Below, one piece after another: positions 9,520 to 32,458 of a stretch of 47,601 nt of DNA. The stretch lies in the IMG/VR virus record IMGVR_UViG_3300025326_000063; one strand, 5' to 3'. A program made the position numbers and the translations under genes. Numbering within the stretch: position 1 is the stretch's first letter; every line of letters begins with the position of its first letter. Under the pieces are notes generated by a model. That model was not told the origin of the DNA. It did no database searches and saw nothing but the letters and a program-made list of their open reading frames with translations. Source of the DNA: a virus.

Positions 9520-9522
9520 AAT

Positions 9523-10778: not shown

Positions 10779-10782
10779 CTAA

Positions 10783-11622: not shown

Positions 11623-11643
11623 GGCGAAGTACGGAGCACAAAG

Positions 11644-12282
11644 GTGAATTTTCCCAAGATATTGCAGGTAGATGGCAAGTTAAACAATCGGCGGGCTCAT
11701 CGAAGTTCGGCGTTATATGACAGGGTTCATTTTCCTGGTGTAGCGGCGAAGTTAACTGCTTGCGGGTTCACTCGGAGCGAGTTGGGTTACGTTTTAGGTG
11801 TTAGTGAGACTACGGTAGCAAACTGGTTGCGTGAACATCCTGAGTTTGCTGCGGCGATAGCGGATGCTCAGGAGAGCACGGTGAAGTTTTTAGTAGCTCA
11901 GGCGATGCGCAGCGCGGTGGGTTACGAGTACGTGGAGAGCAGGCGTAGTTTTAGGATTATTGAGGGTAAGCGGGTTCAGGTAGGGGAGGAGAGTTGGACG
12001 CGGGTTCGTGAGCCTTCTGAGGCTCTTTTGATGTTCTTAATGATAAATATGAGTAAGGGTCAGTTTAAGAACACGCGGTTTATTGAGACTAAGAGTACGA
12101 GTGTAAGCGCGAATTTAGATGTTCGGGGCGAGTTAGAGGCTGAGGAGATACGGAAGTTGGCGGGCAAGTTGAGTATTATAGCGGATGATAGGGAGAGAGT
12201 TGGAAGCACTATCCAAAATCGAGACTCCGGCGGAGTTCTGGTCGAAGATACCGAGGGAGCAGAGCGCGAACCTGCTATTTAG
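11644..12282 (+). CDS. terS: Terminase small subunit
   Basis: HTH segment TRSELGYVLGVSETTVANWLREHPEFAAAI. Lies immediately upstream of and overlapping TerL. GTG start. Confidence 0.7.
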   Translation: MNFPKILQVDGKLNNRRAHRSSALYDRVHFPGVAAKLTACGFTRSELGYVLGVSETTVANWLREHPEFAAAIADAQESTVKFLVAQAMRSAVGYEYVESRRSFRIIEGKRVQVGEESWTRVREPSEALLMFLMINMSKGQFKNTRFIETKSTSVSANLDVRGELEAEEIRKLAGKLSIIADDRERVGSTIQNRDSGGVLVEDTEGAEREPAI

Positions 12283-16942: not shown

Positions 16943-17278
16943 ATGCCAATGTATAGCTATTTATGTTCAGGTTGCGGCGAGAGTTTCGACGATGTTTCGC
17001 CTCAGAAGCAGAGGCATTTGAAGCGCAAATGCCCGCACTGCGGCGGATGGGGCAAAAGGGACGTAAAGTCCGAGCTTGCCAAGTCCGGCAGGTTCAACGC
17101 AATGATGAAGGACAATCCGAGGAAGTCATGCGCGCTGGGTATAAATCCGGCGCAGATAGACGATTTTCATAGGACGTGGCCCTGGATGCGATTTGACGAA
17201 CAGGGGAATTGCCTAATACAAAACAGACAGGAAAAATTGCGCGTTATGAAAGCCAGAGGGTATGACGAAATTGAGTAA
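16943..17278 (+). CDS. FmdB-like zinc-ribbon protein
   Basis: MPMYSYLCSGCGESF...KCPHCGG. Confidence 0.6.
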   Translation: MPMYSYLCSGCGESFDDVSPQKQRHLKRKCPHCGGWGKRDVKSELAKSGRFNAMMKDNPRKSCALGINPAQIDDFHRTWPWMRFDEQGNCLIQNRQEKLRVMKARGYDEIE

Positions 17279-17726
17279 GGACATTAGTTGGCTCTACGAA
17301 ACCAAGCGATGTAGTTGTTGCGAACAGGAAAAGCCGTTAGATTGCTTTGCGCGACAGAGTAACGCCCCAACGGGGCTAAAATACGTTTGCCGAGAGTGCG
17401 ACAACAAAAAGGGGCGTGATTATTACCGGGAGACTAAGGTAATATGGAAAGAAAAGTACAAAAAGAAACACCGCAAATCAATGCTGAAACATCACTATGG
17501 GATAACACCCGAACAGTATAACGCAATGTATGAAAGGCAGGGTGGTTGTTGCGCTATTTGCGGAAGGCATCAAAGTAAGTTTGCGAGAAGATTAACAGTT
17601 GACCACTGCCACGGAACTGGAAAGATTAGGGCGTTACTTTGTGGGAATTGCAATAATGGTTTGGGTTGTTATAAAGATGATCCTGAGCTTTTAATTAAAG
17701 CATACCAGTATTTACAAAAGTATTGA
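17262..17726 (+). CDS. Recombination endonuclease VII-family homing endonuclease with an N-terminal zinc-ribbon module
   Basis: LTVDHCHGTGKIRALLCGNCNNGLGCYKDD is the Endo VII signature. N-terminus is CSCC...PLDCF...GLKYVCRECD. Confidence 0.85.
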   Translation: MTKLSKDISWLYETKRCSCCEQEKPLDCFARQSNAPTGLKYVCRECDNKKGRDYYRETKVIWKEKYKKKHRKSMLKHHYGITPEQYNAMYERQGGCCAICGRHQSKFARRLTVDHCHGTGKIRALLCGNCNNGLGCYKDDPELLIKAYQYLQKY

Positions 17727-18815: not shown

Positions 18816-19940
18816 ATGGCATCAGGTGGTATTACTATAGACCAGGCTGTTGACCTGGGCGTAGCTACTATGAACGCTTTCGATCAGGACGCCGTTCAGA
18901 TAGCTCTTAAACACCCCACCTATGAGGTAATCAATCGCTGGTTCGCCGGCGATAAGAAAATCCTCTCAGGCGGGAAGAAAGCGACGTGGGACCTGACGGT
19001 GAAAGACACCGGCAACGCGGGCCACGTCAATATGTTCGAGACTGATACCCCCAACGTTGCAAACGTCAACGTTGAGGGCGAGGTCAACTGGTGTCACGCC
19101 AAGAACTCGTTTACCTATTCGGTGGACGAACTGGCGATGAACCTTAACGATAAGACGCGAATCTTCAACTTGTTCAAGAACCGCAGGCAGAATTGCGCAC
19201 GCGAGTTCGCGGACTTGCTCGAAGAGGCTGCTTGGAAGACTCCGGCGTCCTCAACGGATACGAAAGCGCCTTTCGGAATACCCGGCTGGCTCGTTCAGGC
19301 CGATACCTCGGTTGTTACCGGCGAATTTCAGGGCTATGTGGGTGACTATTCCGTTGCCGTTCTGAGTACGGAATCGGCGATGGCTACGGTCGGCGGGCTG
19401 GCTTGTACGAGTGCGACTAACGCGCGTTGGGCTAATTGGTACGCAAATCACAGCGACCAGTTGAACGATAGTCTGCTCGATAAGCTCGGCGAGGCGTTCA
19501 GAAAGACCAAGTTTATGACGCCCAAGATTGCGGGCCAGGCGATAGACCCGGAGAGCGGGTTCTCCAACTTCCGGCTCTATACCAATAACGAGGTTTTGAA
19601 GAATATCGAAGCCTACGCTCGCAAGAGTGACGACCGGCTTGGTGGCGACTTGGGCAAGTACGCGGGCAATACCGTCTATAAAGGCATCCCGTTTATCTAC
19701 GTTGATAGTCTGGACGACGTCTCCATTTACGTTCGCGGCAAGAACCCCATCTACGGAGTGAACCATAATCACTTCTACCCGATGGTGCTCTCCGGCAAGA
19801 ACTTCATCTGGGGCAAGCCTATTAACGACGTGAACCAGCACCTTGTCCTTACGGTTTATCTCGACTTGACTTACGCCTACGTCTGCGACAACCGCAGAAC
19901 GGGCGGCTTTATGCTTTCAAATTGGGAAAATGCGTATTGA
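18816..19940 (+). CDS. Major capsid protein (putative)
   Basis: 374 aa, strong SD (AAAGGAGGGAG), follows the scaffold gene and is followed by hairpins. The call rests on position and size. Confidence 0.7.
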   Translation: MASGGITIDQAVDLGVATMNAFDQDAVQIALKHPTYEVINRWFAGDKKILSGGKKATWDLTVKDTGNAGHVNMFETDTPNVANVNVEGEVNWCHAKNSFTYSVDELAMNLNDKTRIFNLFKNRRQNCAREFADLLEEAAWKTPASSTDTKAPFGIPGWLVQADTSVVTGEFQGYVGDYSVAVLSTESAMATVGGLACTSATNARWANWYANHSDQLNDSLLDKLGEAFRKTKFMTPKIAGQAIDPESGFSNFRLYTNNEVLKNIEAYARKSDDRLGGDLGKYAGNTVYKGIPFIYVDSLDDVSIYVRGKNPIYGVNHNHFYPMVLSGKNFIWGKPINDVNQHLVLTVYLDLTYAYVCDNRRTGGFMLSNWENAY

Positions 19941-20053: not shown

Positions 20054-20950
20054 ATGTCTCAGGGTATTGTTGGTGGGGGCGGAGTCCTCACAAAAACCAG
20101 AAGGGTTTTCTATCGCACCGGTACGGCCAACGCGGGCTACGCGGTCAACTACAACTTCGACGCCGTTGATATAACGGCTGAAAGTGAAAGTTTGTCCGGC
20201 GCTACCGCTACCGACTGGTGCGACGCTCGGCGCGTTCAAGTCGAAGACCCGTCGTTTGAAAATAACCTGCACTTTGCAGGCGCTATCGACAAGGTTTCCG
20301 ACGGGGTAGTCGGCCCGAACTGGATTTTAATACACGAGCCGGGCAGTATTTGCCAGATTCACGCGGCAATTACCGTTGACCATCGGGACGCCAGTGTAGC
20401 CAGTGCTAATGCGGGTACTATGCTGACCTTTGGTGTCTGCACGAACTCGGTTGGCGCGGCTCATACTACTGCTCCGTACATTAACGGTCAGTGGCAGAAG
20501 TACGGGCTTCCGGGCGAGGGTTCGGCTATGGTGCTTGAGGCGGCTACTACCGCTTCGGCTCTGATTATGGCCGAGCTAATGACCGGCCTGCCCTCCGGCG
20601 GACGCCAGTACATACCGATGTTGGCGACTGCGATTGCAGGCGTTACTATTACCTATCACGGGGTAACGTTCATATCGTCCGAGGCGGGATCGTCAGTGGT
20701 TGGCAGCGCCGTTATCGGCGCGGGCACGTTTATCGGCCAGCGCAAGATTATCGAAGTTGACGGTGCGCTTACGGGCGTTGGCTGGAAGGTAAGTTTTGCC
20801 AATGGGTTCACTCCGAACCTGTCGGCCGAATACCTGGCTAGTCCACCGCTTGTTGCCGCTACCGCCGTTACGCTCATTTCGGGCAGTTTCCTCGATATGA
20901 ATTGGAATGGCACTAAGTGGCTTGTTCTGTCCGACCAGAAACTTACGTAA
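20054..20950 (+). CDS. Gly/Ala/Thr/Ser-rich virion protein (capsid decoration or head fibre candidate)
   Basis: 298 aa, beta-rich composition, AAAGGAG upstream, followed by a terminator. Confidence 0.5.
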   Translation: MSQGIVGGGGVLTKTRRVFYRTGTANAGYAVNYNFDAVDITAESESLSGATATDWCDARRVQVEDPSFENNLHFAGAIDKVSDGVVGPNWILIHEPGSICQIHAAITVDHRDASVASANAGTMLTFGVCTNSVGAAHTTAPYINGQWQKYGLPGEGSAMVLEAATTASALIMAELMTGLPSGGRQYIPMLATAIAGVTITYHGVTFISSEAGSSVVGSAVIGAGTFIGQRKIIEVDGALTGVGWKVSFANGFTPNLSAEYLASPPLVAATAVTLISGSFLDMNWNGTKWLVLSDQKLT

Positions 20951-20964: not shown

Positions 20965-20998
20965 GGGGGGCTGGGGCGACTCAGTCCCCCAATTTTTT
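20965..20998 (+). terminator. Rho-independent terminator after the capsid genes
   Basis: GGGGGGCTG-GGGCGACT-CAGTCCCCC (9-bp stem with one G.U pair) followed by AATTTTTT. Confidence 0.6.
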
Positions 20999-21012
20999 CC
21001 AGGGGGAACAAA

Positions 21013-21564
21013 ATGAAGCTCAACATTCACAGTTGGGACAGAAGGGACTTTATCGGCATTATTCTAAGGTGCACGAAAGCCGAACGGGGCGCCGAGATAG
21101 GGGTCTTTACGGGCGAAATATCCGAACTACTACTCAGGGGTATGCCCGGCCTGAAGATGCGCCTTATCGACCCGTACAGGCAATTTCCCAAAGAGGTCTA
21201 TGACGATATAGCCAACGACGACCAGGACGTTCAAGATGCCCGTTACGAGTACGTCTGCAAATTGTTCGCAAAAAATAAAAATGTCGAGATTTTGCGCTTG
21301 ACGAGCGAGGAGGCCGCCCCGAAAATACCCGATGAAAGTCTGGACTTCGCCTATATCGACGCGAACCATTCTTATCAGTTTGTGAAAAGGGACATTGAAC
21401 TATGGTGGCCTAAGGTGAAGCAGCACGGCATATTAGCGGGGCACGACTATCTTATTCCCGCCGTAGCCAACGCGGTAGTCAACTCAAATCTCTCCGAGGA
21501 AATCCACTGGCTTATGACGGCGGATATTTGGATGGTCGGAAAGGGTAAAGATGTTTTTACGTGA
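21013..21564 (+). CDS. Class I SAM-dependent methyltransferase (Methyltransf_24 / TylF-like)
   Basis: EIGVFTGE is motif I. DFAYIDANHSY and ILAGHDY follow. ATG 21013 after AGGGGGA. Confidence 0.7.
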   Translation: MKLNIHSWDRRDFIGIILRCTKAERGAEIGVFTGEISELLLRGMPGLKMRLIDPYRQFPKEVYDDIANDDQDVQDARYEYVCKLFAKNKNVEILRLTSEEAAPKIPDESLDFAYIDANHSYQFVKRDIELWWPKVKQHGILAGHDYLIPAVANAVVNSNLSEEIHWLMTADIWMVGKGKDVFT

Positions 21565-21574
21565 AAGGGGAATA

Positions 21575-21754
21575 ATGATGATAGATGATGAAAAATGGCC
21601 GCCGGGTAAAATCATAATAAGTGGGGGTAAGGTGTTTGACCGGTGTGCAAACTGTGGCAAAATCGTTCAGGTGAACAAGGGGATATTCGGTTCTTTTCAT
21701 CTTTGCGTTCCACAAGAAGAACGAGAAAATAATCGAAAGGGGAATAAATGCTAA
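21575..21754 (+). CDS. Small zinc-ribbon hypothetical protein
   Basis: CANCGK...HLC. The start is either 21551 or 21575. Confidence 0.4.
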   Translation: MMIDDEKWPPGKIIISGGKVFDRCANCGKIVQVNKGIFGSFHLCVPQEERENNRKGNKC

Positions 21755-21935
21755 TCAGGCGGTATCAGGAAGAGCATCCGGAGAAAAATGCCGAATGGCG
21801 GAAGCGGTATCGAGAAAAGCATTGAGAAGAGATACGAAAGAGAAGCTGGGCGCGATATGCACTTTGGCGAAAAGATAATTCTAAAAAGCCGAAACAGCGG
21901 GGTAATTACTAATTATTTGAAAGGGGAACTTGATA

Positions 21936-23315
21936 ATGCTACAAAAAATCTCTATTTTAACCAATTTACCCTCGCGCGATAAATCGACGGATGAGTATCT
22001 TGGTGAGGAGTTGCGCGATTTAGGCTATGAGGTGAACGTAACCGACTTCCTGCCCAAGAACCGGGAGCATATTCTGATTTACAAGCCGGATCTGGTCGTT
22101 TTGCCGGAGCCGCGATGCGAATATACCGTCGATTTTATCGAGACGATTCGTGCTTGGGGCATTAAGGTTGTCGTCAAGCGCTGCGAGGGCGGCACGGCGC
22201 GCGAAGCCTGGGACTTAATGGAGGAATCCGAACGAAAGACGGTAATGGGCACGTGGCCTTACTACTGCGACCTTGAAATAGTCTGGTCTAAAGACTTCGC
22301 GAATCTTGTCGCCGAGCACGGGCACACCCCGAAAGAGAAACTGTTCGTGGCGGGCGCACTGCCGTTTGACCCGTACTTTTACAATAAGTATCCTCAGCCG
22401 TCGCCGAATAGAAAGATACTGCTCTTTGCGCCCGGCTGGGGGCACGCGGACCGCAGCAGGAACTATAACGTACCCGAAGCCGACCCAGGCAGTCCCATCC
22501 ACTCAGATGCTTTCGACCGGCACAACGAGGGGCGGACTAAATGGATTAAGATGATCCGCGAGGTCGGTAAGGTCTTGGAAAAAGAAGGTTGGGCAACTTT
22601 TATTCGTCCTAAGGTGGGTGAGATTCCGAGGGCCTATCAGGACGCGGTGGGCAAGTATTGCCGCCTTGCCCCGCCTAGTATTACTGAGAATGCCTTGTGG
22701 AATACGGACGTACTAATTCACGCGGGCAGTACAATGGCTATCGAGGCTCATCTGTGCGGAATACCGGCGTTCAGCTATTGCGGCGAGATAAACCAGGTCA
22801 AGGGCTATCAATTCCCTAAGGTCTCGCCTGAGTTGGAGACTATCGACGAGATAATCGACGCGGTGAGAACCGTCCAACTCTACCGTTCCAATGCAAATGA
22901 TAAGGCGATTAGAAAGTTGGAGCAGGATTTCTATGGCACAATAGACGGCCACGCCTGTAAAAGGGCGGCTAAGGCAATTTCGATGATACCGTTGGGCAAA
23001 TTGAAAGTGCCCTTCGCCTGGCCGCCGCCTAAACTGGATGGTGCCTACTATATCCCAAACGTCTGGCGGTTCATTATGCAATGGCAGTGCGAATGCTGCA
23101 AGAACACGAGCTTTTCGCCTCCGGGCGCAATTGAAAGTGGCAGCGGCGTTATCTCAGTAGCGTCGTCGGCGACAATGGAGGCTGGCAACGCGGAGATGAT
23201 AAAGTGCCCCTGGTGCGGCATTGCATTAGCGAGGCGCTATCCCGACGAGTACATAATCAAAAAAGGCCCGCCGGTAATACCGGATAGGTTGCTTCTTGTA
23301 CAGGGTGGAGTATGA
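21936..23315 (+). CDS. GT-B-fold-like glycosyl/phospho-sugar transferase (TagF/capsule-synthesis-like) with a C-terminal zinc ribbon
   Basis: KILLFAPGWGH resembles the ILYAPTWR motif of the Glyphos_transf family. DVLIHAGSTMAIEAHLCGIPAF is a GT-B C-domain-like segment. C-terminus has CECC...CPWC. Confidence 0.45.
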   Translation: MLQKISILTNLPSRDKSTDEYLGEELRDLGYEVNVTDFLPKNREHILIYKPDLVVLPEPRCEYTVDFIETIRAWGIKVVVKRCEGGTAREAWDLMEESERKTVMGTWPYYCDLEIVWSKDFANLVAEHGHTPKEKLFVAGALPFDPYFYNKYPQPSPNRKILLFAPGWGHADRSRNYNVPEADPGSPIHSDAFDRHNEGRTKWIKMIREVGKVLEKEGWATFIRPKVGEIPRAYQDAVGKYCRLAPPSITENALWNTDVLIHAGSTMAIEAHLCGIPAFSYCGEINQVKGYQFPKVSPELETIDEIIDAVRTVQLYRSNANDKAIRKLEQDFYGTIDGHACKRAAKAISMIPLGKLKVPFAWPPPKLDGAYYIPNVWRFIMQWQCECCKNTSFSPPGAIESGSGVISVASSATMEAGNAEMIKCPWCGIALARRYPDEYIIKKGPPVIPDRLLLVQGGV

Positions 23316-23318
23316 CGA

Positions 23319-24464
23319 ATGGAGCCGGAAGATATACGATGGTGTAGTAAATGCTGGACGCCGAGCACCCGCCCGCGCATAACCTTTAACGAGAAGGGCG
23401 TATGTAACGCCTGCGCATGGTCTGAGGAGAAGAAGGCAATCAACTGGCTTGAGCGGGAGAATTACTTTGCAACGCTCTGCGATAAGTACCGGCGAAAGGG
23501 CGAGCCGGACTGTATAGTGCCCTGGTCGGGCGGTAAGGACAGCATTTACGTAGCCTATAAGATGCGGGACGAGTTCGGGATGACCCCGCTCTTAGTAACC
23601 GTTCTGCCTCACCTTGAAACGGAGATCGGAGAATGGAACAGGAAGAATACTTGTCCAGGTTTCGAGAAGATGGAAATAAACCTTAAAGAGGACAAGTACA
23701 GGTCTCTGGCGAAGAAATACTTTATCGAACAGGGCCGTCCTAAGCATCCCTGGGAGACTGCCGTATCCGCCGTGGTAATCAATCAGGCTTGGAAGATGAA
23801 GATTCCATTCATTATTTACGGTGAAGAGGGCGAGCAGGAATACGGCGGTTCGAGTGGAGAAAAAGACAGGTGGAAACATCCAGTCGATAAAAAGTACCTA
23901 ACGGAATTCTACTGGCAGCACAAGCTCGACTGGGAAATCCCGCCGGACAACGAGTTAGAGAAGATATTCTTTACTCAATACAGTCGGTTCGAGAATTGGA
24001 GTCCGACGAAGCACGCTGATTTTGCAATAGCGAAGGGAATGAGAACGAAACCCGTGCGCAGCGTGGGTACGTTTAGTTGTTGGTCGCAAATTTCAGACTG
24101 GCTACAGGGGTTGCATACTTATTTAATGCTGCTCAAATTTGGTTTTGGGCGGTGTACTTCCGATATTTCGATAGCCATCCGCGAAGGATGGAAATCGCGG
24201 AGTGAAGGTTTGGAATTGATTGAGGCATACGATGGGGAATTCGATAACGAACATCTTAATAATTTTCTCGAGTATTTCGAGATGGATAAGAGAGAATTCG
24301 ATGAGACGTTGGCGAAGTACGCCGGTGGAGAGTTATTGGAGCGGGCGGGAGCGTTCGGTTCGGATACGGGGCACATCTGGTATTTGCAGGCTTGGGTCGC
24401 CAAGCTGCGCCGCAGGGACACTAAGAACGAATTAACCAGCCCGGAAAGGTTTGACGTGAGGTGA
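23319..24464 (+). CDS. N-acetyl-sugar amidotransferase (WbpG/PseA family, PP-loop ATPase)
   Basis: CSKCWTPSTRPRITFNEKGVCNAC zinc finger. CIVPWSGGKDSIYVA is the SGGxDS PP-loop. GMTPLLVT follows. Confidence 0.8.
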   Translation: MEPEDIRWCSKCWTPSTRPRITFNEKGVCNACAWSEEKKAINWLERENYFATLCDKYRRKGEPDCIVPWSGGKDSIYVAYKMRDEFGMTPLLVTVLPHLETEIGEWNRKNTCPGFEKMEINLKEDKYRSLAKKYFIEQGRPKHPWETAVSAVVINQAWKMKIPFIIYGEEGEQEYGGSSGEKDRWKHPVDKKYLTEFYWQHKLDWEIPPDNELEKIFFTQYSRFENWSPTKHADFAIAKGMRTKPVRSVGTFSCWSQISDWLQGLHTYLMLLKFGFGRCTSDISIAIREGWKSRSEGLELIEAYDGEFDNEHLNNFLEYFEMDKREFDETLAKYAGGELLERAGAFGSDTGHIWYLQAWVAKLRRRDTKNELTSPERFDVR

Positions 24465-24467
24465 AAA

Positions 24468-25127
24468 ATGAAAATGATGACGACGGCGGCAGTTGTGGAA
24501 CGGCTCAAAAAAACAAAAAACGTTGCTCGAATTGACGTCCGGTTTTTGCGCCTGCATAAATTGTATCGTCCCGTTACGTTCGGGTTGGCTTTAAGGGGAT
24601 TTCCGGAGTTGCAACTCCCTCATTACGCGGTGCACCAATGGGACTATGACATGGCCCGTTTCAACGTTTTTGAGCTAGGAATAAGGTCGTACACCAGACG
24701 TCTTAGGGATTGCCCTCATTGTGGAACGCTTTATTATGATACGGCGGCAAAAGACTATGACGTTCGGTTTGCGAATAACGTGAAAACGTGGCCTAATGAA
24801 ATACGCGAGATGTTAGAGTTGTCCATAAGTAATAAAACTCAGGTATCTAAGTACGGCGGAACTAATGGCCCATCGTGGACCATTAGATTGTGCCTTAAAA
24901 CAATTATACCAGAGATTGTTCAGGAAACGCTTTTGACGCTTGAACGGAAGAAGTATCCGTTTGTTGCCGTAGTTCAAGAAGCAGATTGGGCGGAAGCTAG
25001 AGTGGAGTTACGCGGTGATCCGTTATTGGTGGCCATGGATACGGAAGGCAATTTTTGGCTTTTGGCTGCTTTCCACTTATCGAATGGAGAACATTACGTT
25101 GCCTCAGAATTTACCGGAAAGGTTTGA
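24468..25127 (+). CDS. Hypothetical protein inside the glycan island
   Basis: 219-aa ORF, tightly packed between the amidotransferase and the radical-SAM gene. No motif recognised. Confidence 0.55.
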   Translation: MKMMTTAAVVERLKKTKNVARIDVRFLRLHKLYRPVTFGLALRGFPELQLPHYAVHQWDYDMARFNVFELGIRSYTRRLRDCPHCGTLYYDTAAKDYDVRFANNVKTWPNEIREMLELSISNKTQVSKYGGTNGPSWTIRLCLKTIIPEIVQETLLTLERKKYPFVAVVQEADWAEARVELRGDPLLVAMDTEGNFWLLAAFHLSNGEHYVASEFTGKV

Positions 25128-25133
25128 TGTAAG

Positions 25134-26045
25134 ATGAGAATGCCCATCGAAGCGTCGTGTATTCAAATCATTGTGAATAACGTCTGCGAGCACGATTGTT
25201 GCCACTGCTCACAGCTTATCGGCCATCAGGGTAATCATTACCAAATGACGCTGGACTATTGTGAGCAAGCGCTTGTTTCCTTGCAAGGCCATCCAGGGAG
25301 CGTCGGCTTCTTCGGGGGCAATTCGTTACTGCATCCGCAATTTCCCGAATTGTGCGAATTGCTGCGCAAGTATCGGCCAGTAAAGGCCCGCAGGGAACTA
25401 TGGTGCAGTGGAGCGAACTACGACAAATACAAAGAGATAATTGATGAGACTTTCTATCCTGAATTGGTGGCCTACAATGATCACAAAGACGGCCAGGACT
25501 GCTGGCATCAGCCGGTGTTGATAGCGCCTAATGAGGTTTTTGAAGATAAGGAATTGATGTGGCGGGTGATAGACAATTGCTGGGTGAACCTTAGATGGTC
25601 TGCCGCCGTTACTCCGCTTGGCGCCTTTTTCTGCGAGATAGCCTCGGCGATAGCGTGGCTGCTGAAAGAGAGTATTGGCATACCCGTTAAGCCGGGCTGG
25701 TGGCGGGAAGAGGAAAGTGATTGGTACTTTCAGCGAGGAACTATTTGCCCCTTATGCTCCGCCTGCCTGCCTATGCCGATGGTGGCCAACGATAAACAGG
25801 ACTACGACGATATATCGGCGGGTAACTTGGATAGGATTATCGGTGTTTCGCCGAGATGTATTAAGGGTAAGTACAAGATTTTCAATACGGACAATCTTAG
25901 GGACTATTACAAGGGCCACACCTTCGAGCCGGAGACCGAATTCGAGAAGCGGGGCTGGTTCAAAGACTTTCCATTTTGGAAACCGAACAGATATAGAAAT
26001 GTGGTGCGCCATTCGCCCGATGATAAAGACAATTCCAAAGACTAA
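25134..26045 (+). CDS. Radical-SAM-like protein
   Basis: NNVCEHDCCHC matches CX3CX2C. FFGGNSLLHP resembles GGEPLLHP. Confidence 0.55.
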   Translation: MRMPIEASCIQIIVNNVCEHDCCHCSQLIGHQGNHYQMTLDYCEQALVSLQGHPGSVGFFGGNSLLHPQFPELCELLRKYRPVKARRELWCSGANYDKYKEIIDETFYPELVAYNDHKDGQDCWHQPVLIAPNEVFEDKELMWRVIDNCWVNLRWSAAVTPLGAFFCEIASAIAWLLKESIGIPVKPGWWREEESDWYFQRGTICPLCSACLPMPMVANDKQDYDDISAGNLDRIIGVSPRCIKGKYKIFNTDNLRDYYKGHTFEPETEFEKRGWFKDFPFWKPNRYRNVVRHSPDDKDNSKD

Positions 26046-26202
26046 GATATGTAAGGGATGTTACAGAAATTTACCTTTACAAAAGTTTTCTAAGCAAAAG
26101 AGTGGAAAGTATGGGTATCACTCTCGGTGTAAGGAATGTATAAGTGAAGAAAACTGCATATATAAACAGAGACCAGAGGTAAGAGAAAGAATAGAGAGGT
26201 AG
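26020..26202 (+). CDS. Stand-alone zinc-ribbon module homologous to the N-termini of the Endo VII/HNH genes (homing-endonuclease remnant?)
   Basis: MIKTIPKTKICKGCYRNLPLQKFSKQKSGKYGYHSRCKECISEEN. This is the last 60 codons of track ORF 25675-26202. Confidence 0.5.
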   Translation: MIKTIPKTKICKGCYRNLPLQKFSKQKSGKYGYHSRCKECISEENCIYKQRPEVRERIER

Positions 26203-26208
26203 TGAAGC

Positions 26209-26394
26209 ATGCGCCGCAAACCGAAACAAAGTGATTCTCGTTTAGCCGCTTACGACGCCGAATTTCGGGCGGCGACGAATATGGCTCTCGATTACTGGTC
26301 GTTCATGGCCGCCCCCGAACAGGTGGATGAGCGACGAAAAGCGATGGAAACAAGAGAGTTGGCGAGGTTAAAAAACTGCTTTGAGACCACATAG
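26209..26394 (+). CDS. Small hypothetical protein, paralog A
   Basis: Ends ...AMETRELARLKNCFETT, sharing a 59-bp identical 3' end with the next ORF. Confidence 0.4.
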   Translation: MRRKPKQSDSRLAAYDAEFRAATNMALDYWSFMAAPEQVDERRKAMETRELARLKNCFETT

Positions 26395-26629
26395 AAAATG
26401 GCCGGACAATGACGTGTAAAGAAACTGCGAAACAATGCTTGGCGGACGCCACATGGCCGCCCCCGAACAGGTTGCCGATGCAAATTTATTACAGGGGCGT
26501 TCCTATCGAGGAATTTGATAAAGAAGACCTTATTAAAATTGTTGCCTTATGCCTGGAGCAATTAAAGTGCATGGAAACAAGAGAGTTGGCGAGGTTAAAA
26601 AACTGCTTTGAGACCACATAGAAAATGGC
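26344..26629 (+). repeat. Pair of 59-bp perfect direct repeats (26344-26402 and 26571-26629), plus a 20-bp repeat
   Basis: ATGGAAACAAGAGAGTTGGCGAGGTTAAAAAACTGCTTTGAGACCACATAGAAAATGGC occurs twice, 227 bp apart. ATGGCCGCCCCCGAACAGGT also occurs twice (about 26304 and 26454). Confidence 0.9.
26409..26621 (+). CDS. Small hypothetical protein, paralog B
   Basis: Ends ...CMETRELARLKNCFETT. Confidence 0.4.
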   Translation: MTCKETAKQCLADATWPPPNRLPMQIYYRGVPIEEFDKEDLIKIVALCLEQLKCMETRELARLKNCFETT

Positions 26630-27507
26630 ATCTTGTAATTCTTGACCGACTAATCACTGCGTTCCTCTTTTGTTGGTACAGTGTTGCGGACAAGGTGCGC
26701 CTGCGCCTTGCCCGCAGGCATTATGAATATCAATACTACCCGGAGAACGCACCGAAACATTTTAAGGCGACTCCGCTTGTCTCTATTATAATGCCCACGA
26801 TAGGACGGAACGCGACTGAGGCGATAGATTCCGTTCTTGCGCAGACTCATAAGAATTGGGAATTGATAATTGTGGGCGACGGCGCGCCACCGTATCCGGC
26901 GTCTAATATCGGCGACGGTAGGATTAAATGGTATTGGATCGAAAAGGTTCGTCACTACCCCGACCATCCGTTTTATCAATGGCTTTCCGGGCCGTGTAGG
27001 GCGATAAACTACGGGCTATCCAGGTTGCGGGGGGATTGGATAGCCCGAATTGACGACGACGATGTCTGGCATCCGAGACATCTTGAATGGGCGCTGGAAG
27101 CGGCGACTAAATATGATTATGAGTTCGTATCGTTTCCCATTGACTTAAATGGCCGACAGCCAATACCGGACGTTCATTGCGGGCAAGCCGTTGGCGCAGT
27201 TCAGTCGTGGCTGTATCGCGGTTATCTGAGATACTTTGAGACGAATCTTCATTGCTGGCGCAAAAGGCGGAACGCGGTGAACGATATAGACCTTTCGGAG
27301 CGAATGGCGCGGGCCGGTGTGAAAATAACGTTTATTTGCGGGTCTGACACGGAGTCGCACGCGATTATTAAGCCGAGACTGGGCCTAACGGAAGTAGGAA
27401 TTAAGGGATGGTTGCAAGAGGGAGAGCAAAATGCGCGGGGGCAAGAGTTTTCTGGCGGTGATACCGGCCAGGGGCGGCAGCAAGGGAATCCCGAACAAGA
27501 ACGTTAA
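26608..27507 (+). CDS. Family-2 glycosyltransferase with a hydrophobic N-terminal segment
   Basis: VSIIMPTIGRN..AIDSVLAQTHKNWELIIVGDG. ARIDDDDVWHPRHLE is the DxD motif. The start is uncertain (TTG 26608 or GTG 26695). Confidence 0.8.
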   Translation: MRPHRKWHLVILDRLITAFLFCWYSVADKVRLRLARRHYEYQYYPENAPKHFKATPLVSIIMPTIGRNATEAIDSVLAQTHKNWELIIVGDGAPPYPASNIGDGRIKWYWIEKVRHYPDHPFYQWLSGPCRAINYGLSRLRGDWIARIDDDDVWHPRHLEWALEAATKYDYEFVSFPIDLNGRQPIPDVHCGQAVGAVQSWLYRGYLRYFETNLHCWRKRRNAVNDIDLSERMARAGVKITFICGSDTESHAIIKPRLGLTEVGIKGWLQEGEQNARGQEFSGGDTGQGRQQGNPEQER

Positions 27508-28204
27508 GGACTTTTGCGGCAAGCCGCTAATTCAGTGGTCTATCGAGGCCGCAAAAGATAGCGGCGTATTCGACCGGATAATAGTCAACAGTGATTCCGA
27601 TAAGATACTGGCCGTGGCCGCTAAGTGCGGCGCGGACGTTCAGCCGCGACCTGCTGAATTGGCTTCGGACACGTCGCTGGTGGCGGACGTTATGGTGAAT
27701 TCACTGCTTAGGCTCGGCGAAAAGTATGATTACGTTCAGTTGATTCAGGCTACGAGTCCTGGGCTAAGACCCGCACAGATACAGGGTGCGGCGAGAATGA
27801 TTCAGGGCCAGCCGCCGTTTGAGAATTGGAAAGATAGAAACGCCGATATGGTTGTCGGGGTTCACAAGTATAAAGACCCGACGATAGTAGTCAAGGAGCT
27901 GCCGAATGATTTATGTTTGAAGGGTTGGTATCCTAAGCAGTTTAAGGACAAGAACAGGCAGGACTTACCGCCCGCGTACCGGATAAACGGGTACATCTAC
28001 CTTGCCAAGTGGGATGTCTGGGTGAACCGCAAAGACTATTGGAAAACGAACGTTTACGCCTATATCTGTGATGAGCACGATGATATTGACATTGATACCA
28101 AATGGGATTGGGACGTTGCCGAGGCCCGATTCCGGGCGGCGGGCAAACATAGACTTTCGAGGTGGGAAATATGCAAAAGATTGCTAAAGAGGCTGGCAAG
28201 TTAA
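27431..28204 (+). CDS. neuA: CMP-nonulosonic acid synthetase (acylneuraminate cytidylyltransferase; NeuA/LegF/PseF family)
   Basis: LAVIPARGGSKGIPNKN...GKPLIQWSIEAA...LIQATSPGLR. Confidence 0.85.
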   Translation: MRGGKSFLAVIPARGGSKGIPNKNVKDFCGKPLIQWSIEAAKDSGVFDRIIVNSDSDKILAVAAKCGADVQPRPAELASDTSLVADVMVNSLLRLGEKYDYVQLIQATSPGLRPAQIQGAARMIQGQPPFENWKDRNADMVVGVHKYKDPTIVVKELPNDLCLKGWYPKQFKDKNRQDLPPAYRINGYIYLAKWDVWVNRKDYWKTNVYAYICDEHDDIDIDTKWDWDVAEARFRAAGKHRLSRWEICKRLLKRLAS

Positions 28205-29145
28205 GCAGTTTTGCCGGCATTTATCGCAAGTGCAATTCCGGCACAATGGCGGACAAGCTGGCGAATCCAATAGACTTCCCTCGCCTGATAGATATTGAAT
28301 TGACTAATCAGTGTAATCTTCATTGTGCTATGTGCCCGACTGGGCAGGGCATAGTCAAGAGGCCGAAAGGATTGATGTCCGCCAATTTGTTTGGGTTGAT
28401 TCTCAAGGAGGCTGCCAAGTACGGTGCGGCTTTGCGGTTTGTTCGGTGGGGGGAGCCATTCATACATCCGCAGTGCCTGGCCTTCTGTAAACTGGCGCGG
28501 CAAGTGAACGTGCCCGTCTGGATAAATACCAACGGGACGCTAATCGACGACGAGGCCATTGACCGGATAATCCACTTGAGATACGGCCCATCGACTATCA
28601 AGTTTTCCTTTCAGGGTGTTACTGCTGAGCAGTACAAAAAGTGGCGAGGAGAGGATAATTTCGAGAAGTTGTTTGAGACTGTCGGTGAAATATACAAAAA
28701 AAGGGGAGCGTTCAGGATGCCGTTCATACAGATAGGGAGTACGATAACCGATGAAAGTACAGCAAATGAAGTGGCGGAGTTTCGGCATTTTGCTGAAAAA
28801 ATCGCCGACAAAGTTGAAATTAGCCGAACAAAGAAAATTGGATTCGACCCTTGCTCGATGGCGGAAAACTGTCCTGAAATCTTTGATAAAATGTCTATCA
28901 ACTGGGACGGGACGGTAGTTGCCTGCTGTGCGGACTATGATAACGAGATGGTGGTCGGTGATTTGGCCAAGAGCAGTCTCAAGAATATCTGGGATTTCGG
29001 CCCGGAGTTAAGGGAAATACGAGCCGATTTAGCGGCTGGCCGGTGGAATAAGTATAGGCTATGCGGAGGGAACTGTTATGATGCGGGGAATAGTAAGGCC
29101 GACGAAGGCCAGGCTAAAGGCGTTTTTCAGTCAAGCGCAAAATGA
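28171..29145 (+). CDS. Radical-SAM enzyme with a SPASM/twitch-like C-terminal Cys cluster
   Basis: ELTNQCNLHCAMCPTG matches CX3CX2C. C-terminus has CPEIF...DGTVVACCADYD...LCGGNC. Confidence 0.75.
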   Translation: MQKIAKEAGKLSSFAGIYRKCNSGTMADKLANPIDFPRLIDIELTNQCNLHCAMCPTGQGIVKRPKGLMSANLFGLILKEAAKYGAALRFVRWGEPFIHPQCLAFCKLARQVNVPVWINTNGTLIDDEAIDRIIHLRYGPSTIKFSFQGVTAEQYKKWRGEDNFEKLFETVGEIYKKRGAFRMPFIQIGSTITDESTANEVAEFRHFAEKIADKVEISRTKKIGFDPCSMAENCPEIFDKMSINWDGTVVACCADYDNEMVVGDLAKSSLKNIWDFGPELREIRADLAAGRWNKYRLCGGNCYDAGNSKADEGQAKGVFQSSAK

Positions 29146-29500
29146 ACGGTTCTTGAAGAACCCGCCGGTTTACCGGCAGGGTACGTGCGACGTGCACTAT
29201 ATCCTTTTGGGCTACGGGCATCCGGTAATTGCCTACGGGTGGATTCGCGGATGGGACGAGAATTGGCCCGATAAATGCCTGGGTCTTCTCGTCCACCCCG
29301 AATGTCGGGGACGGGGTTATGGCGAGTTGACGTGCCGGTTCTTATTGCAGGCGGGCAAGGAACGGAATCTGGCTCGCGTGCGCCTGCACGTTGACCCCAA
29401 GAACGAGTTGGCTCTGAGTTTATATAAGAAGGTAGGTTTTGCTTTCGACGGTGCAAAAAGAGCGGACGGTGAGATGATAGGATTTTACTGTTATGAGTAA
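29078..29500 (+). CDS. GNAT-family N-acetyltransferase (PseH/LegH-like role possible)
   Basis: LLVHPECRGRGYGELTCRFLL is the acetyl-CoA motif R/QxxGxG. 140 aa. Confidence 0.7.
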   Translation: MMRGIVRPTKARLKAFFSQAQNERFLKNPPVYRQGTCDVHYILLGYGHPVIAYGWIRGWDENWPDKCLGLLVHPECRGRGYGELTCRFLLQAGKERNLARVRLHVDPKNELALSLYKKVGFAFDGAKRADGEMIGFYCYE

Positions 29501-29675
29501 TAAAGAATTGATAGATAGTTTGCGAGTAGCGCTTAAAAACACGAAATTTCGTCCCCCCGTAGCGTCAGGCGCGAAAATTGAGATTGACCGCCGGAAGATT
29601 AAGAAGGGTTCTTTTCCAAACTATGAGCGCGTACATAATAGCCGAAGCGGGTCTCGAAGCGAATGGCAGCACTAG
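29493..29675 (+). CDS. Doubtful small ORF between the GNAT and NeuB-like genes
   Basis: ATG overlaps the GNAT stop. The last third overlaps the NeuB-like start. Confidence 0.25.
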   Translation: MSNKELIDSLRVALKNTKFRPPVASGAKIEIDRRKIKKGSFPNYERVHNSRSGSRSEWQH

Positions 29676-30405
29676 TGCGGCTGCGCAGTTAATTTTTGCC
29701 GCGTCTTTCTCCGGTGCGGACTGCGTGAAGTTCCAGCTTTACAGCGAGGAGACCGCGAATAAGGTCGGCGGCCGTTTGCCCGCGTGCCGGTTGGACGTGG
29801 GGCAGTTTGAATATCTCAGAAAGTACACGGCCAAGTGTAATGGTATTGAATTTCTCTTATCTGCTTTTGATATGGAGAGTCTAAAACAGTGCAAACTATT
29901 GGGTTGTAAAGCCGTGAAGATACCATCCGTCTGCAACGAGAATTGGGATATGCTGCAATATGCGGATGACCATTTTGACGTCATATACGTCTCGTCGGGC
30001 TTGGCGGGGCTTATTGGCGTTCCAGCCAAGTGCCTAACCTTGCTTTGCACCTCTGTCTATCCCTGCCCGTTTGAGCAGGTGAATTTAAGGGCGATAACGA
30101 ACTATGACGGCCTTTCCGATCATACGATAGGCTGGGAAGTGCCCATAGCGGCGGTTGCCATGGGCGCGATGATTATCGAAAAACACTTGACAATATCTCG
30201 TAGCACCGACGGCCCGGACGCCTGCTGCGCCCTTGAGCCGATGGAATTTGCCGATATGGTCTATCGTATCAGAAACGTCGAAAAGGCTATGGGCGACGGT
30301 ATTAAGAAAATCGAGCCAGGGGAGATGGGATTACTCTGGCGGAAACAACTGGGGTGCACGAGACTTGAAGATGAGGAGTATGCCGAATGGCGAAAATCAC
30401 TTTAG
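29623..30405 (+). CDS. neuB: Nonulosonic acid synthase (NeuB/LegI/PseI family), TIM-barrel domain only
   Basis: MSAYIIAEAGLEANG...GADCVKFQ...GLSDHTIGWEVPIAAVAMGAMIIEKHLT. 260 aa, with no C-terminal SAF domain. Confidence 0.8.
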   Translation: MSAYIIAEAGLEANGSTSAAAQLIFAASFSGADCVKFQLYSEETANKVGGRLPACRLDVGQFEYLRKYTAKCNGIEFLLSAFDMESLKQCKLLGCKAVKIPSVCNENWDMLQYADDHFDVIYVSSGLAGLIGVPAKCLTLLCTSVYPCPFEQVNLRAITNYDGLSDHTIGWEVPIAAVAMGAMIIEKHLTISRSTDGPDACCALEPMEFADMVYRIRNVEKAMGDGIKKIEPGEMGLLWRKQLGCTRLEDEEYAEWRKSL

Positions 30406-31364
30406 TGGCAGGTAGTCGTTCCGACTACGGACTCTTAGAGCCGCTTTTGGAATGGTTGCAAGACCATAATTGCGGCGGGGGGGATACGAACACCCTAATT
30501 CAGCTTTTCGGAGCTTCTACGGCCTCTGGGTGGCCTTCTCGATGCTTCCGGGGGGCAAGTCTAAGGGTTGTGGAATGTTTCACGGATTCCGATAGTCCTG
30601 AAGGGGTCTGCGCCTCTATGGGACTGGTTTGTATGAAACTGCCACAGATATTGAAAGAAGGCGCTTATGAAAAAGTTATCGTTCTGGGCGACCGTTATGA
30701 AATACTTAGTGTGGCTTGTTGTGCTTATACTCTTGGCATACCTATTTCTCATATCGAGGGCAGCGATACGACTTTAGGCTCGCTGGACAACGGATACCGA
30801 GCGGCCATAAGGTCTTTGGCCGCCGAGCATTACGACGTGGAGGAATACGGGTCTTTGGGTTGTGTATTCCCGCCCGACGGCAATGGCCAACACTATCCGG
30901 CTCTGGTTGTGTTGATTTATCATTCGCACAAAGGCGACTGGGAAAGCGAATTGCGGGCTATTCTTGATGCTGTTAAACCTTATCGAACAGCAGCTTTTGG
31001 GTCGAATAAAGATGCAGACGGCAGAAAAATAAATCGGATTCTTAAAGAAAATGGAATTATTCCTCTTGACAATCTACCGCGTATGCAATATATTAACATA
31101 CTCAGAGACGCGGATTTCATTATCGGCAACAGCAGCAGTGGAATCATAGAAAGTGCTTCTCTTCACATTCCCGCTATAAATGTTGGGGATAGACAAAAAG
31201 GCAGAATGAGAGCCAAAAGCGTTATCCAAGCCGACGGAAGTGTGGAGAGTATTAAGCAAGCGATAGAAAAAATCAAAGACTTGCAAGACTTTGATTTTGA
31301 GAATCCGTATTTTAGACCTAATATTGTGGAGCGCATAGGCAAAGGGATTCTGGGTTATGCCTGA
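30387..31364 (+). CDS. neuC: UDP-N-acetylhexosamine 2-epimerase, hydrolysing type (NeuC/LegG family)
   Basis: KITLVAGSRSDYGLLEPLL...VLGDRYEILSVA...PISHIEGSDTT.G..D...R. Confidence 0.75.
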   Translation: MAKITLVAGSRSDYGLLEPLLEWLQDHNCGGGDTNTLIQLFGASTASGWPSRCFRGASLRVVECFTDSDSPEGVCASMGLVCMKLPQILKEGAYEKVIVLGDRYEILSVACCAYTLGIPISHIEGSDTTLGSLDNGYRAAIRSLAAEHYDVEEYGSLGCVFPPDGNGQHYPALVVLIYHSHKGDWESELRAILDAVKPYRTAAFGSNKDADGRKINRILKENGIIPLDNLPRMQYINILRDADFIIGNSSSGIIESASLHIPAINVGDRQKGRMRAKSVIQADGSVESIKQAIEKIKDLQDFDFENPYFRPNIVERIGKGILGYA

Positions 31365-31581
31365 GACAAAGATTTGCTCCAAGTGTCATAAAAAGCAACC
31401 CATTACTTCATTTCCGAAACGGCCCAATAGGAAAGCCGGATTACACGGCCACTGTTACGAGTGCCGTAGAAAATCAACACATAATTGGTATTTGCGGAAT
31501 AAGCAGCTGTGTGGACATTGTAACGCTTGTTTGGCTTGGTATGAGAACAAAAGAGTAATCGTAGAAAATTACTTACGGTAG
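31357..31581 (+). CDS. Stand-alone zinc-ribbon module (homing-endonuclease N-terminal domain homolog)
   Basis: MPETKICSKCHKKQPITSFPKRPNRKAGLHGHCYECRRKS. Overlaps the neuC stop by 8 nt. Confidence 0.5.
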   Translation: MPETKICSKCHKKQPITSFPKRPNRKAGLHGHCYECRRKSTHNWYLRNKQLCGHCNACLAWYENKRVIVENYLR

Positions 31582-31613
31582 AGAGGATCGGAAAAGGGAT
31601 TTTGGGCCGCTGA
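31578..31613 (+). pseudogene. Recoded duplicate of the last 10 codons of the NeuC-like gene
   Basis: GTAGAGAGGATCGGAAAAGGGATTTTGGGCCGCTGA translates to VERIGKGILGR*. The neuC end at 31326-31364 is VERIGKGILGYA*. Differences are almost all synonymous. Confidence 0.55.
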
Positions 31614-31657
31614 AAAGCGGAGGGATATACGACTTCATCGTTTCCCCTTTTTCAAAG

Positions 31658-31694
31658 CGCAAGTAGTGGTGCGCACTGCTACTTGCGTCTTATT
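31658..31694 (+). terminator. Hairpin (weak terminator or processing site) at the end of the glycan island
   Basis: CGCAAGTAG (31658-31666) pairs with CTACTTGCG (31679-31687), followed by TCTTATT. Confidence 0.35.
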
Positions 31695-31711
31695 AAAACG
31701 CGGAGAGAAAA

Positions 31712-32458
31712 ATGCCAAGTTTGCAACTTTCATTTTCGGAGCTTTACAACGCCGTTTCAAAGTACGCCGGCACGTATGGCTCGTCCGGCGTATCCGGTAC
31801 GGACCTTACCGACGCTAAGGATATGGTAAACGCGGCGTACCGAAGACTTCTTCTTAGCCATAATTGGACTTTCTTAACGCCTACCCGCCAGATTTCGACG
31901 GTGTCCGGCACGTGGCAATATGAGTTGCCCGCCGACTTTGTACGGATAAAGAGCACGTTCAGGTACTCGTCCGCCGACGCCTACCCGCCCCTGCGGGAGC
32001 GAATGTATGAGCAGATAGAGGAGTTTCGCGCCGTTACCGATACTACGGGTTATCCGACTTATTTTGCTCTTGTTGCAGGCGAGCACGCGTCCGAAACGGG
32101 TCAGAAATGGATAGTTACGTTCTTTCCTACTCCTGATGCCGCTTATACCCTTTACTATTCTCCTGAGATTTGGCCCGCAAAGATGGTGAACGACAGTGAT
32201 TTGCACATCGGCGGCCCGGACGTTTCGGAGGCTTTGAAAGAATTGGCAATCGCTCAGGCCGAAGCCGAATTGGACGAGCTTGCGCCTGACCAGTCCGTTC
32301 ACGAGAAGAAGGCCAGTGGCCTGCTTATGCAGGCGGTAATGAAGGACAACGAGCGGAGGGCGCATAATTTAGGCTATAACAACGACGAGAATATGGGCGG
32401 GGTAATTGATATAACTCGCGAATACAGGTTAAATGAAGTGAATATGGTTGACTTCTAA
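31712..32458 (+). CDS. Virion structural protein (head-tail adaptor/connector candidate)
   Basis: 248-aa ORF, the first gene after the island, with GGAGAGAAAA upstream. The call rests on position only. Confidence 0.45.
   Translation: MPSLQLSFSELYNAVSKYAGTYGSSGVSGTDLTDAKDMVNAAYRRLLLSHNWTFLTPTRQISTVSGTWQYELPADFVRIKSTFRYSSADAYPPLRERMYEQIEEFRAVTDTTGYPTYFALVAGEHASETGQKWIVTFFPTPDAAYTLYYSPEIWPAKMVNDSDLHIGGPDVSEALKELAIAQAEAELDELAPDQSVHEKKASGLLMQAVMKDNERRAHNLGYNNDENMGGVIDITREYRLNEVNMVDF

Follow-up and report, generated by a model that had tools for sequence, protein, structure and literature searches.

The genome recorded in IMG/VR as virus IMGVR_UViG_3300025326_000063 carries, among its head and tail genes, an island of glycan genes that very probably encodes a route to make, activate, tailor and transfer a nonulosonic acid (NulO). 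The window, meaning the whole stretch of 47,601 bp analysed here, has a 127-bp direct repeat at its ends (1-127 and 47475-47601); this is an assembler k-mer overlap, and the window thus represents a complete, closed circular genome of 47,474 bp. The island (21013-31581, + strand) holds approximately 18 ORFs in 10.6 kb, or 22% of the circle. Neighbouring ORFs lie 3-6 nt apart or overlap by 8-68 nt, an arrangement that suggests translational coupling. A first-pass annotation, made from the DNA letters alone, had described a sialic- or legionaminic-type synthesis, activation, tailoring and transfer island within the structural operon. Every ORF that it named lies on the + strand where it had been placed, with motifs legible in the translations, and profile searches agree with the description; no integrase was found among the scanned ORFs of ~125 aa or more, a scan outside which small repressors fall.

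Genes of the island and its borders

The predicted enzymes, together with the capsid-side and tail-side genes that frame them, are as follows.

18816-19940, + strand: probable major capsid protein (flank), with a weak match to PHROG 9953 (major head protein), E 2.6e-6
20054-20950, + strand: probable capsid decoration or head-fibre protein of 298 aa, the last conserved head gene before the island
21013-21564, + strand: SAM-dependent methyltransferase (Methyltransf_24, 59 bits against a cut-off of 26)
21936-23315, + strand: GT-B glycosyltransferase, putative CMP-NulO transferase, with a C-terminal CxxC...CPxC zinc ribbon
23319-24464, + strand: N-acetyl-sugar amidotransferase of the WbuX/PseA type (TIGR03573, 270 bits against a cut-off of 203)
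25134-26045, + strand: divergent radical-SAM-like protein with a CX3CX2C motif (Radical_SAM, 25 bits, sub-threshold)
26695-27507, + strand: family-2 glycosyltransferase (GT2) with an IDDDD motif (Glycos_transf_2, 63 bits), variable among relatives
27458-28204, + strand: CMP-nonulosonic-acid synthetase (CTP_transf_3, 99 bits against 22.6)
28171-29145, + strand: radical-SAM/SPASM (twitch-like) enzyme (Pfam Radical_SAM, 52 bits, and SPASM, 49 bits)
29078-29500, + strand: GNAT acetyltransferase (Acetyltransf_1, 47 bits)
29623-30405, + strand: NeuB-family NulO synthase (PF03102, 154 bits against a threshold of 22.1)
30387-31364, + strand: hydrolysing NDP-sugar 2-epimerase of the NeuC/LegG type (Epimerase_2, 121 bits against 30.6)
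31712-32458, + strand: head-tail adaptor (flank), PF24175 SU10_adaptor in the precomputed Pfam annotation

Synthesis and activation of the sugar

The putative synthase retains the IIAEAG, KFQ, KIPS, SDH and EKH catalytic and metal-binding motifs, which align to the solved structures 6ncs and 8h2c. Unlike canonical NeuB, PseI and LegI, this 260-aa protein has no match to the C-terminal SAF domain, and its best solved relative, 6ncs (3.7e-24), is a SAF-less protein of 290 aa as well. It scores below the equivalog cut-offs of NeuB_NnaB (TIGR03569, 180 against 400 bits) and PseI (TIGR03586, 119 against 340 bits). The epimerase is matched by the NeuC_NnaA model (TIGR03568) with 199 bits and an E value of 1e-58, compared with 0.008 for the non-hydrolysing WecB, and this score too lies below the curated cut-off of 235.9 bits. 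Its top match in the PDB is 5xvs (1e-28), a hydrolysing 2-epimerase of the legionaminic pathway that acts on diNAcBac. The cytidylyltransferase reaches 160 bits with the PseF model, short of the equivalog cut-off of 205.7, and matches CMP-sialic-acid synthetases at 1e-28 to 1e-20 (NeuA 9ftb, 3.5e-28; mouse CMAS, 2e-26), compared with 4e-7 or weaker for KdsB. When the NeuC-, NeuB- and NeuA-like trio was set against non-NulO families, KdsB and WecB fitted far worse and the NeuB motifs were found intact. An apparent loss of the GNAT gene in contig L001 proved to be a gene-calling difference only, as the DNA is 100% identical.

Tailoring enzymes

The amidotransferase had been annotated as WbpG/PseA-type, an assignment borne out by its score above the TIGR03573 cut-off and by the SGGKDS PP-loop; an N-terminal CxxC...CxxC is legible in the translation, and the closest structure is PDB 8wex (1.4e-43). 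HisH/HisF-like partners, which supply ammonia to such enzymes, are not found within the island. The methyltransferase is conserved in five relatives (L015, L017, L022, L023 and L168). The radical-SAM-like protein at 25134 is 42-56% identical in many relatives, and its homologue in L022 passes the Pfam Radical_SAM threshold.

The radical-SAM/SPASM enzyme has the motif CNLHCAMC and a C-terminal domain with only five conserved cysteines, which makes it twitch-like. It is kept in the relatives whose sequence spans that part of the island. Homologues with 32-42% identity occur at 57 loci in genome assemblies (L030-L086), three of which are phage contigs of the present family that were binned into metagenome-assembled genomes (MAGs). 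Within 8 kb of these 57 loci we found a CMP synthetase at 26, NeuB at 24, NeuC at 17 and WbuX at 12; the taxa include Magnetospirillum, Clostridium, Lachnospiraceae, Selenomonas and Planctomycetota. The top PDB match is BtrN (6e-7), a radical-SAM dehydrogenase of an aminocyclitol. This likeness and the NulO genes beside its homologues suggest that the protein is a tailoring enzyme of NulO loci. Embedded as it is in many bacterial loci of this kind, it points to uncharacterised NulO chemistry.

The zinc-ribbon transferase

The putative transferase is related to BFO_1060 (NF046086; E 3.9e-20, covering profile positions 3-362 of 365) and also to TIGR04396, with scores below both curated cut-offs (72 against 200 bits and 69 against 125 bits, respectively). 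BFO_1060 is the orthologue, in Tannerella forsythia strain 92A2, of Tanf_01245 and TFUB4_00887, which are needed to add the terminal pseudaminic (Pse) or legionaminic (Leg) acid derivative to the S-layer O-glycan, as established by knock-out, complementation and mass spectrometry; the authors of that work noted a TagB-like domain in these enzymes (PMC5420450). An AlphaFold2 (AF2) model of the phage protein, built with 25 homologues (pLDDT 83.5, pTM 0.82), has a GT-B, TagB/TagF-like fold. In Foldseek its top match is the TagF-like TarL (1e-9), followed by a TagF-like capsule polymerase, MshA and 2-epimerases. Sequence searches of the PDB with the transferase and with the decoration-like 298-aa protein returned nothing useful.

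A HMMER search with a profile of the phage transferase recovered 67 clusters at E <= 1e-30, 503 at E <= 1e-10 and 2941 at E <= 1e-3. The four ribbon cysteines are invariant among the aligned phage-type homologues. The ribbon motif occurs in 39 of 49 full-length representatives of high-scoring clusters, the other ten being ~700-aa forms and one other protein, and in none of 70 lower-scoring, presumably cellular-type homologues, one of which (P0159) is a member of the Pfam family Glyphos_transf. This confinement of the ribbon to the high scorers suggests that the phage transferase belongs to a distinct, phage-associated branch of a family of NulO-transferase-like proteins.

About ten clusters of ~700-aa proteins (among P0126, P0130 and P0133-P0143) combine the transferase domain, without the ribbon, with an N-terminal region of ~270 aa. 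P0126 and the 634-aa P0136 have an AAA_33 P-loop domain at the N terminus instead, and their C termini carry the ribbon motif. A search of the long (~700 aa) homologues with an HMM of the decoration family revealed no fusion of the two.

Distribution and conservation of the island

Searches for relatives started from five proteins, namely the adaptor, the 298-aa protein, the transferase, NeuB and the radical-SAM protein. At least 15 distinct contigs, recovered from metagenomes of groundwater, sediment and other sources, have the island in the interval from the 298-aa gene to the adaptor. Their structural proteins are 30-96% identical to those of the window; the capsid protein, always two genes upstream of the island, is 54-96% identical among relatives. 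In most relatives that span the whole island there is a recurrent core of transferase, WbuX, CMP synthetase, radical-SAM/SPASM enzyme, N-acetyltransferase and NeuB. The transferase is nearly always the first or second gene, directly after the 298-aa gene. GT2, the methyltransferase and the second radical-SAM protein are variable. NeuC is absent from L012, L017 and L168, and in the same three contigs a hexapeptide acetyltransferase of the NeuD/PglB/VioB type replaces the GNAT enzyme. A PseB-like 4,6-dehydratase has been gained in L009 and L019, and an aminotransferase is found in no lineage of the family.

A distant relative (L020/L021) has the capsid gene, a homologue of the 298-aa gene, a 97-aa gene and the adaptor in this order and lacks the island, which suggests that the island was inserted into an older head module. 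The island genes are under purifying selection: measured against the closest sequenced relative, their dN/dS ratios are 0.11-0.18 (adaptor, 0.14; capsid gene, 0.07). In GC, GC3 and tetranucleotide usage the island equals the rest of the genome.

Members of the same transferase clade also occur at the equivalent position, the junction of capsid and adaptor genes, in two unrelated phage backbones. In L018, a HK97-type capsid gene (PF05065) is followed by a 155-aa gene, a CMP synthetase, a zinc-ribbon transferase and, later, a gp6-like connector. In the L028 family (contigs of ~46-90 kb), a P22-type portal, genes of 349 and 196 aa, sometimes a methyltransferase, the transferase and an SU10-type adaptor are found, without NulO synthesis genes. 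PHROGs and Pfam gave no match for the neighbouring genes in L018 and L028, and hhalign detected no relationship between the decoration family and the 196-aa protein of L028. Together with the relatives of the island, these phages form a graded series, from the transferase only, through the transferase with a CMP synthetase and sets with a synthase and no epimerase, to a near-full pathway. What stays constant is a transferase that adjoins the post-capsid gene. The series represents a natural experiment in pathway accretion.

Among 50,697 deposited phage genomes, megablast of the island found nothing and tblastn of NeuB found three distant records only, which indicates that cultured relatives are lacking. 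Foldseek searches of BFVD returned uncharacterised phage proteins only. NeuB-like genes are present on at least 533 IMG/VR contigs, many of which also have a CMP synthetase, NeuC or WbuX.

Identity of the sugar

As the synthase, the epimerase and the CMP synthetase all score below equivalog cut-offs, the profiles do not fix the type of sugar among neuraminic acid (Neu), Leg and Pse. The first-pass annotation had called the pathway complete. This holds if the product resembles N-acetylneuraminic acid (Neu5Ac), and fails for Leg- or Pse-type 5,7-diamino sugars, for which a 4,6-dehydratase and an aminotransferase are missing in the window. Judged from homology, the LegG-like epimerase, the amidotransferase and the gene content of a locus on contig L158 favour an acetamidino sugar of legionaminic-like type, for which the host would supply a 4-amino precursor. 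Alternatively, the product may derive from Neu5Ac, with all steps from UDP-GlcNAc carried out by phage enzymes.

In L158 (IMG/VR, 55.6 kb, catalogued as viral), the region 1-12000 places the radical-SAM/SPASM enzyme in a textbook legionaminic-type locus with an NTP transferase, a dehydratase, a DegT aminotransferase, NeuC, NeuB, a hexapeptide acetyltransferase, WbuX with a HisF-like protein, a B12-radical-SAM protein and GT2. Similar clusters are seen in L094 and L108, and smaller NulO sets in L089, L091, L111 and L114, all of them presumed viral contigs.

The decoration-like protein as candidate acceptor

The AF2 model of the 298-aa protein (pLDDT 80, pTM 0.78) gives Foldseek matches that are weak and uniform in theme, with target-normalised TM-scores (TMt) of 0.5-0.69 and E values of 3e-3 to 0.1. 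They are decoration or cement proteins (HFTV1, Borrelia BB1, Pam3 and Sf11), the base of the phi29 head fibre and a capsid spike. From this model we tentatively regard the protein as a capsid decoration protein. A homologue is present in the island-less relative L020. In the island-bearing lineages the protein has an extra loop, modelled with low confidence, at residues ~43-58 (ESESLSGATATDWCDARR), which is absent in the island-less lineage.

Proposed mechanism and alternative targets

Two features border the island, the first after the capsid genes and the second before the adaptor.

20965-21000, + strand: terminator-like stem-loop (20965-20990) followed by a T-run; 11 pairs, 8 of them G-C, dG -23.4
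31655-31692, + strand: hairpin before the adaptor gene; dG -20.8, without a T-run

The former had been called an intrinsic terminator, and it is indeed the best terminator-like site between 16 and 34 kb. The latter, described as a hairpin before the tail genes, is real and precedes the adaptor gene, and lacks a proper T-run. A promoter scan yielded 27 sites, not above the shuffled expectation of 19 ± 4.

We hypothesize the following sequence of events, in which the enzymatic steps are derived from homology. The island would be expressed by read-through of the post-capsid terminator, during head assembly and below the level of the capsid gene. The NeuC/LegG-type enzyme would free a 2-acetamido-mannose-type hexose from its nucleotide sugar, possibly after the GNAT enzyme has N-acetylated a host-made 4-amino sugar, and the SAF-less NeuB would join this hexose and phosphoenolpyruvate (PEP). 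The cytidylyltransferase would then form the CMP-sugar. WbuX would turn an N-acetyl group into an acetamidino group, and both radical-SAM proteins and the methyltransferase may modify the sugar further. Finally, the zinc-ribbon GT-B enzyme would move the sugar from CMP to an acceptor, to which GT2 may first have added a primer sugar. The acceptor would be a virion protein, with the decoration-like protein (20054-20950) as the first candidate, and particles would leave the cell with an acidic NulO coat.

That a virion protein, the decoration-like protein first of all, is glycosylated with the NulO has in our judgement an even chance of being correct. The adjacency of the transferase clade to capsid genes in unrelated backbones and its phage-specific ribbon are counted in favour of a virion acceptor. 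The more specific version, to which we hold tentatively and with somewhat less assurance, is that the phage makes its own, possibly novel NulO with radical-SAM tailoring, which the zinc-ribbon transferase puts on the decoration protein, and that the same clade elsewhere uses a host CMP-sugar.

Several points weigh against glycosylation of the virion. Boundaries between modules are common sites of cargo insertion, and position by itself is weak evidence. All members of the family are uncultivated, and a virion glycan is suggested indirectly, by gene neighbourhood. The decoration assignment rests on weak Foldseek scores, with every E value above 1e-3, and the correlation between loop and island rests on a single loop-less lineage and is not phylogenetically independent. 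A strong terminator stands ahead of the island, several of the phage lineages are without a second glycosyltransferase that could provide a primer, and a diamino NulO would need a dehydratase and an aminotransferase from the host. The relatives in T. forsythia, moreover, act on a sugar acceptor of a lipid-linked glycan and not on protein (PMC5420450).

This last point leads to the best of the alternatives, which we nevertheless regard as rather unlikely: that the transferase puts NulO on lipopolysaccharide (LPS), capsule, S-layer or flagellin glycan of the host during infection. Such remodelling could block superinfection or keep progeny off debris, as a lytic-cycle counterpart of seroconversion. 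The closest characterised transferases do act on a cell-surface glycan (PMC5420450), and prophage-borne NulO enzymes that rewrite the capsule are documented, namely EpaA/EpaB and O-acetyltransferases, both in Acinetobacter (PMC12053666, PMC6586298). Homologues of the radical-SAM/SPASM enzyme, WbuX, NeuB and the CMP synthetase sit in cellular NulO clusters (Magnetospirillum, Clostridium, Selenomonas and Lachnospiraceae), and the transferase-only phages of the L028 family must use CMP-NulO from the host, hence their hosts already display such sugars. Against it, three backbones have the transferase gene beside the post-capsid gene, the presumed cellular homologues lack the zinc ribbon, which is specific to phages, and late, low-level expression would leave little time to remodel the envelope. 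Neither an integrase nor a prophage state was found among the ORFs and contigs scanned. The first-pass annotation had preferred virion glycosylation or host-surface remodelling over lysogenic seroconversion. The preference over seroconversion stands on this absence of integrase and prophage state; between the other two, comparative genomics leans to the virion.

Other targets, such as tail fibres, the adaptor, an intracellular host protein or phage DNA, appear improbable. GT-B enzymes include DNA glucosyltransferases, and the adaptor gene also borders the island, but the transferase gene lies at the capsid-proximal end, beside the decoration-like gene. For DNA in particular, no hydroxymethyl-pyrimidine pathway was found among the genes scanned, and we know of no NulO-modified DNA. 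It is scarcely credible that the island is functionless recent cargo or an assembly chimera of a phage and a bacterial NulO locus: although NeuB, NeuC and the CMP synthetase do not reach the NCBIfam equivalog cut-offs, stretches from independent assemblies agree wholly or almost wholly with the window, 47.6-kb contigs recur in different permutations, gene order is kept in relatives down to ~30% protein identity, catalytic motifs are intact, and the dN/dS ratios and genome-like composition given above rule out a chimera or decaying cargo.

Small ORFs of the island

The remaining ORFs of the island are short or without a family match.

21551-21754, + strand: Cys-rich ORF of 67 aa, between methyltransferase and transferase
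21788-21982, + strand: ORF of 64 aa, in the same interval
24468-25127, + strand: 219-aa protein with no family match
26020-26621, + strand: three mini-ORFs, namely a Zn-finger ORF (26020-26202), 26209-26394 and 26409-26621
29493-29675, + strand: ORF of 60 aa
31357-31581, + strand: 74-aa Zn-finger mini-ORF, resembling the N terminus of the EndoVII-like nuclease encoded at 17262-17726

L015, the closest relative, has neither the 67- nor the 64-aa ORF, and its methyltransferase and transferase genes lie almost side by side. A gene similar in size to that of the 219-aa protein follows WbuX in L023. A 66-bp direct repeat, 97% identical between its copies (26338-26402 and 26564-26629), gives mini-ORFs 26209-26394 and 26409-26621 a common C-terminal peptide, METRELARLKNCFETT, and is possibly a recombination scar. 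Mini-ORFs 26020-26202 and 31357-31581 are both like the N-terminal zinc finger of the EndoVII-like nuclease, and one of them was not called by the gene finders. EndoVII-like genes occupy differing spots around the island and the adaptor in L017, L019, L171, L172, L189 and L201. The scattered nuclease genes and the Zn-finger mini-ORFs suggest mobile, homing-endonuclease-like genes that may shuffle the modules of the island.

Genome and setting

All genes from 11.6 kb to the end of the window are on the + strand. Before the island the order is small and large terminase, a portal-like gene, the EndoVII-like nuclease (17262-17726), a scaffold-sized protein, the capsid gene and the 298-aa gene; downstream of the adaptor are tail genes, which include the podophage fibre domain PF23140. 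PHROGs and Pfam gave no match for TerL, the portal, the decoration-like protein, the 219-aa ORF or the small ORFs. In the tail region, an ORF of 1934 aa (39895-45699) has no Pfam match. The genome's sole minus-strand block lies at ~8000-10000, where GC and AT skew flip, and contains an AAA clamp-loader-like gene (8697-9350, minus strand); this block is probably a divergent early or regulatory region.

Contigs of 47.5-47.6 kb whose proteins are identical to those of the window recur across many independent samples with differing circular permutations, and the long contigs are all free circles of ~47.5 kb. Several stretches retrieved anew from independent assemblies agree with the window at 99.9-100% identity over 21 kb. 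The identical transferase protein turned up in 114 data blocks, and 84 of these include contigs between 20 and 50 kb long. The origin is groundwater at Rifle (phages of this kind abound in the groundwaters of Rifle and Hainich), and one record of the recurring contig names a groundwater metagenome (project PRJNA268031).

Assignment to a host was unsuccessful: the genome has no tRNA genes, and phage contigs of the family were binned into MAGs of four unrelated phyla. The MAG labels of L055, L058, L064 and protein P0008 are Colwellbacteria, Pirellulales, Thermoplasmatales and Planctomycetota, with Planctomycetota represented twice. These placements are probably either mis-binning or hints of the host.

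Comparison with known systems

NulOs are the outermost recognition sugars on many bacterial and animal cell surfaces, and a phage with 22% of its genome devoted to making and attaching one such sugar has a strong reason to control its own appearance or that of the host surface. The first-pass annotation had taken such a pathway to be not characterised elsewhere. In the literature we found no description of a phage-encoded module for NulO synthesis and transfer in a structural operon, but the island is conserved across a phage family of groundwater and sediment and is not unique.

The T. forsythia enzymes Tanf_01245 and TFUB4_00887 share with the phage transferase a catalytic profile matched over its full length, the GT-B, TagB/TagF-like fold and adjoining NulO synthesis genes. 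The phage enzymes differ in that they form a separate zinc-ribbon clade, score far below the family cut-off and are encoded in a phage head module. With the bacterial Leg, sialic acid and Pse pathways the island has in common homologues for the epimerase, synthase, cytidylyltransferase, amidotransferase and N-acetyltransferase steps. It lacks their 4,6-dehydratase, aminotransferase, SAF domain and HisH/HisF, and has two radical-SAM proteins in addition.

Mycobacteriophages encode glycosyltransferases that are thought or shown to decorate their own capsid. Virion glycosylation in these phages is mentioned second-hand in two papers (PMC11256854, PMC12582341). They use nucleotide hexoses of the host and have neither a pathway for sugar synthesis nor NulO, whereas the island encodes NulO synthesis. 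Prophages of Acinetobacter baumannii carry the NulO enzymes EpaA/EpaB, including a CTP_transf_3 domain, that alter the host capsule (PMC12053666), and also NulO O-acetyltransferases. The likeness lies in phage-borne enzymes acting on NulO; an integrated prophage there contributes one or two tailoring genes, whereas the island combines synthase, activator, tailoring enzymes and transferase in a structural operon, with no integrase found. In the archaeal virus HRPV-1, the glycan of the spike protein VP4 is capped by 5-N-formyl-legionaminic acid, which is made by the host and affects infection (PMC6137143). This is also a NulO on the particle of a prokaryotic virus, and differs in that the host encodes the pathway and the transfer entirely, and in the kind of virus, here a pleomorphic membrane virus that infects archaea.

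If the target is indeed the virion, the island would represent the first virus-encoded 'sialylation' of a virion. With the capsid as target, virion glycosylation would extend from the hexoses of mycobacteriophages to a fully virus-encoded, acidic nine-carbon sugar, whose effect on the stability and aggregation of particles, on their adsorption to minerals or cells and on how they evade recognition in aquifers could be tested. It would also define a new phage-specific transferase family of ~40 zinc-ribbon clusters at 50% identity. Set beside these systems, the island extends the known glycosylation genes and NulO enzymes of phages, not as a new category, but as an unusually complete and conserved example.

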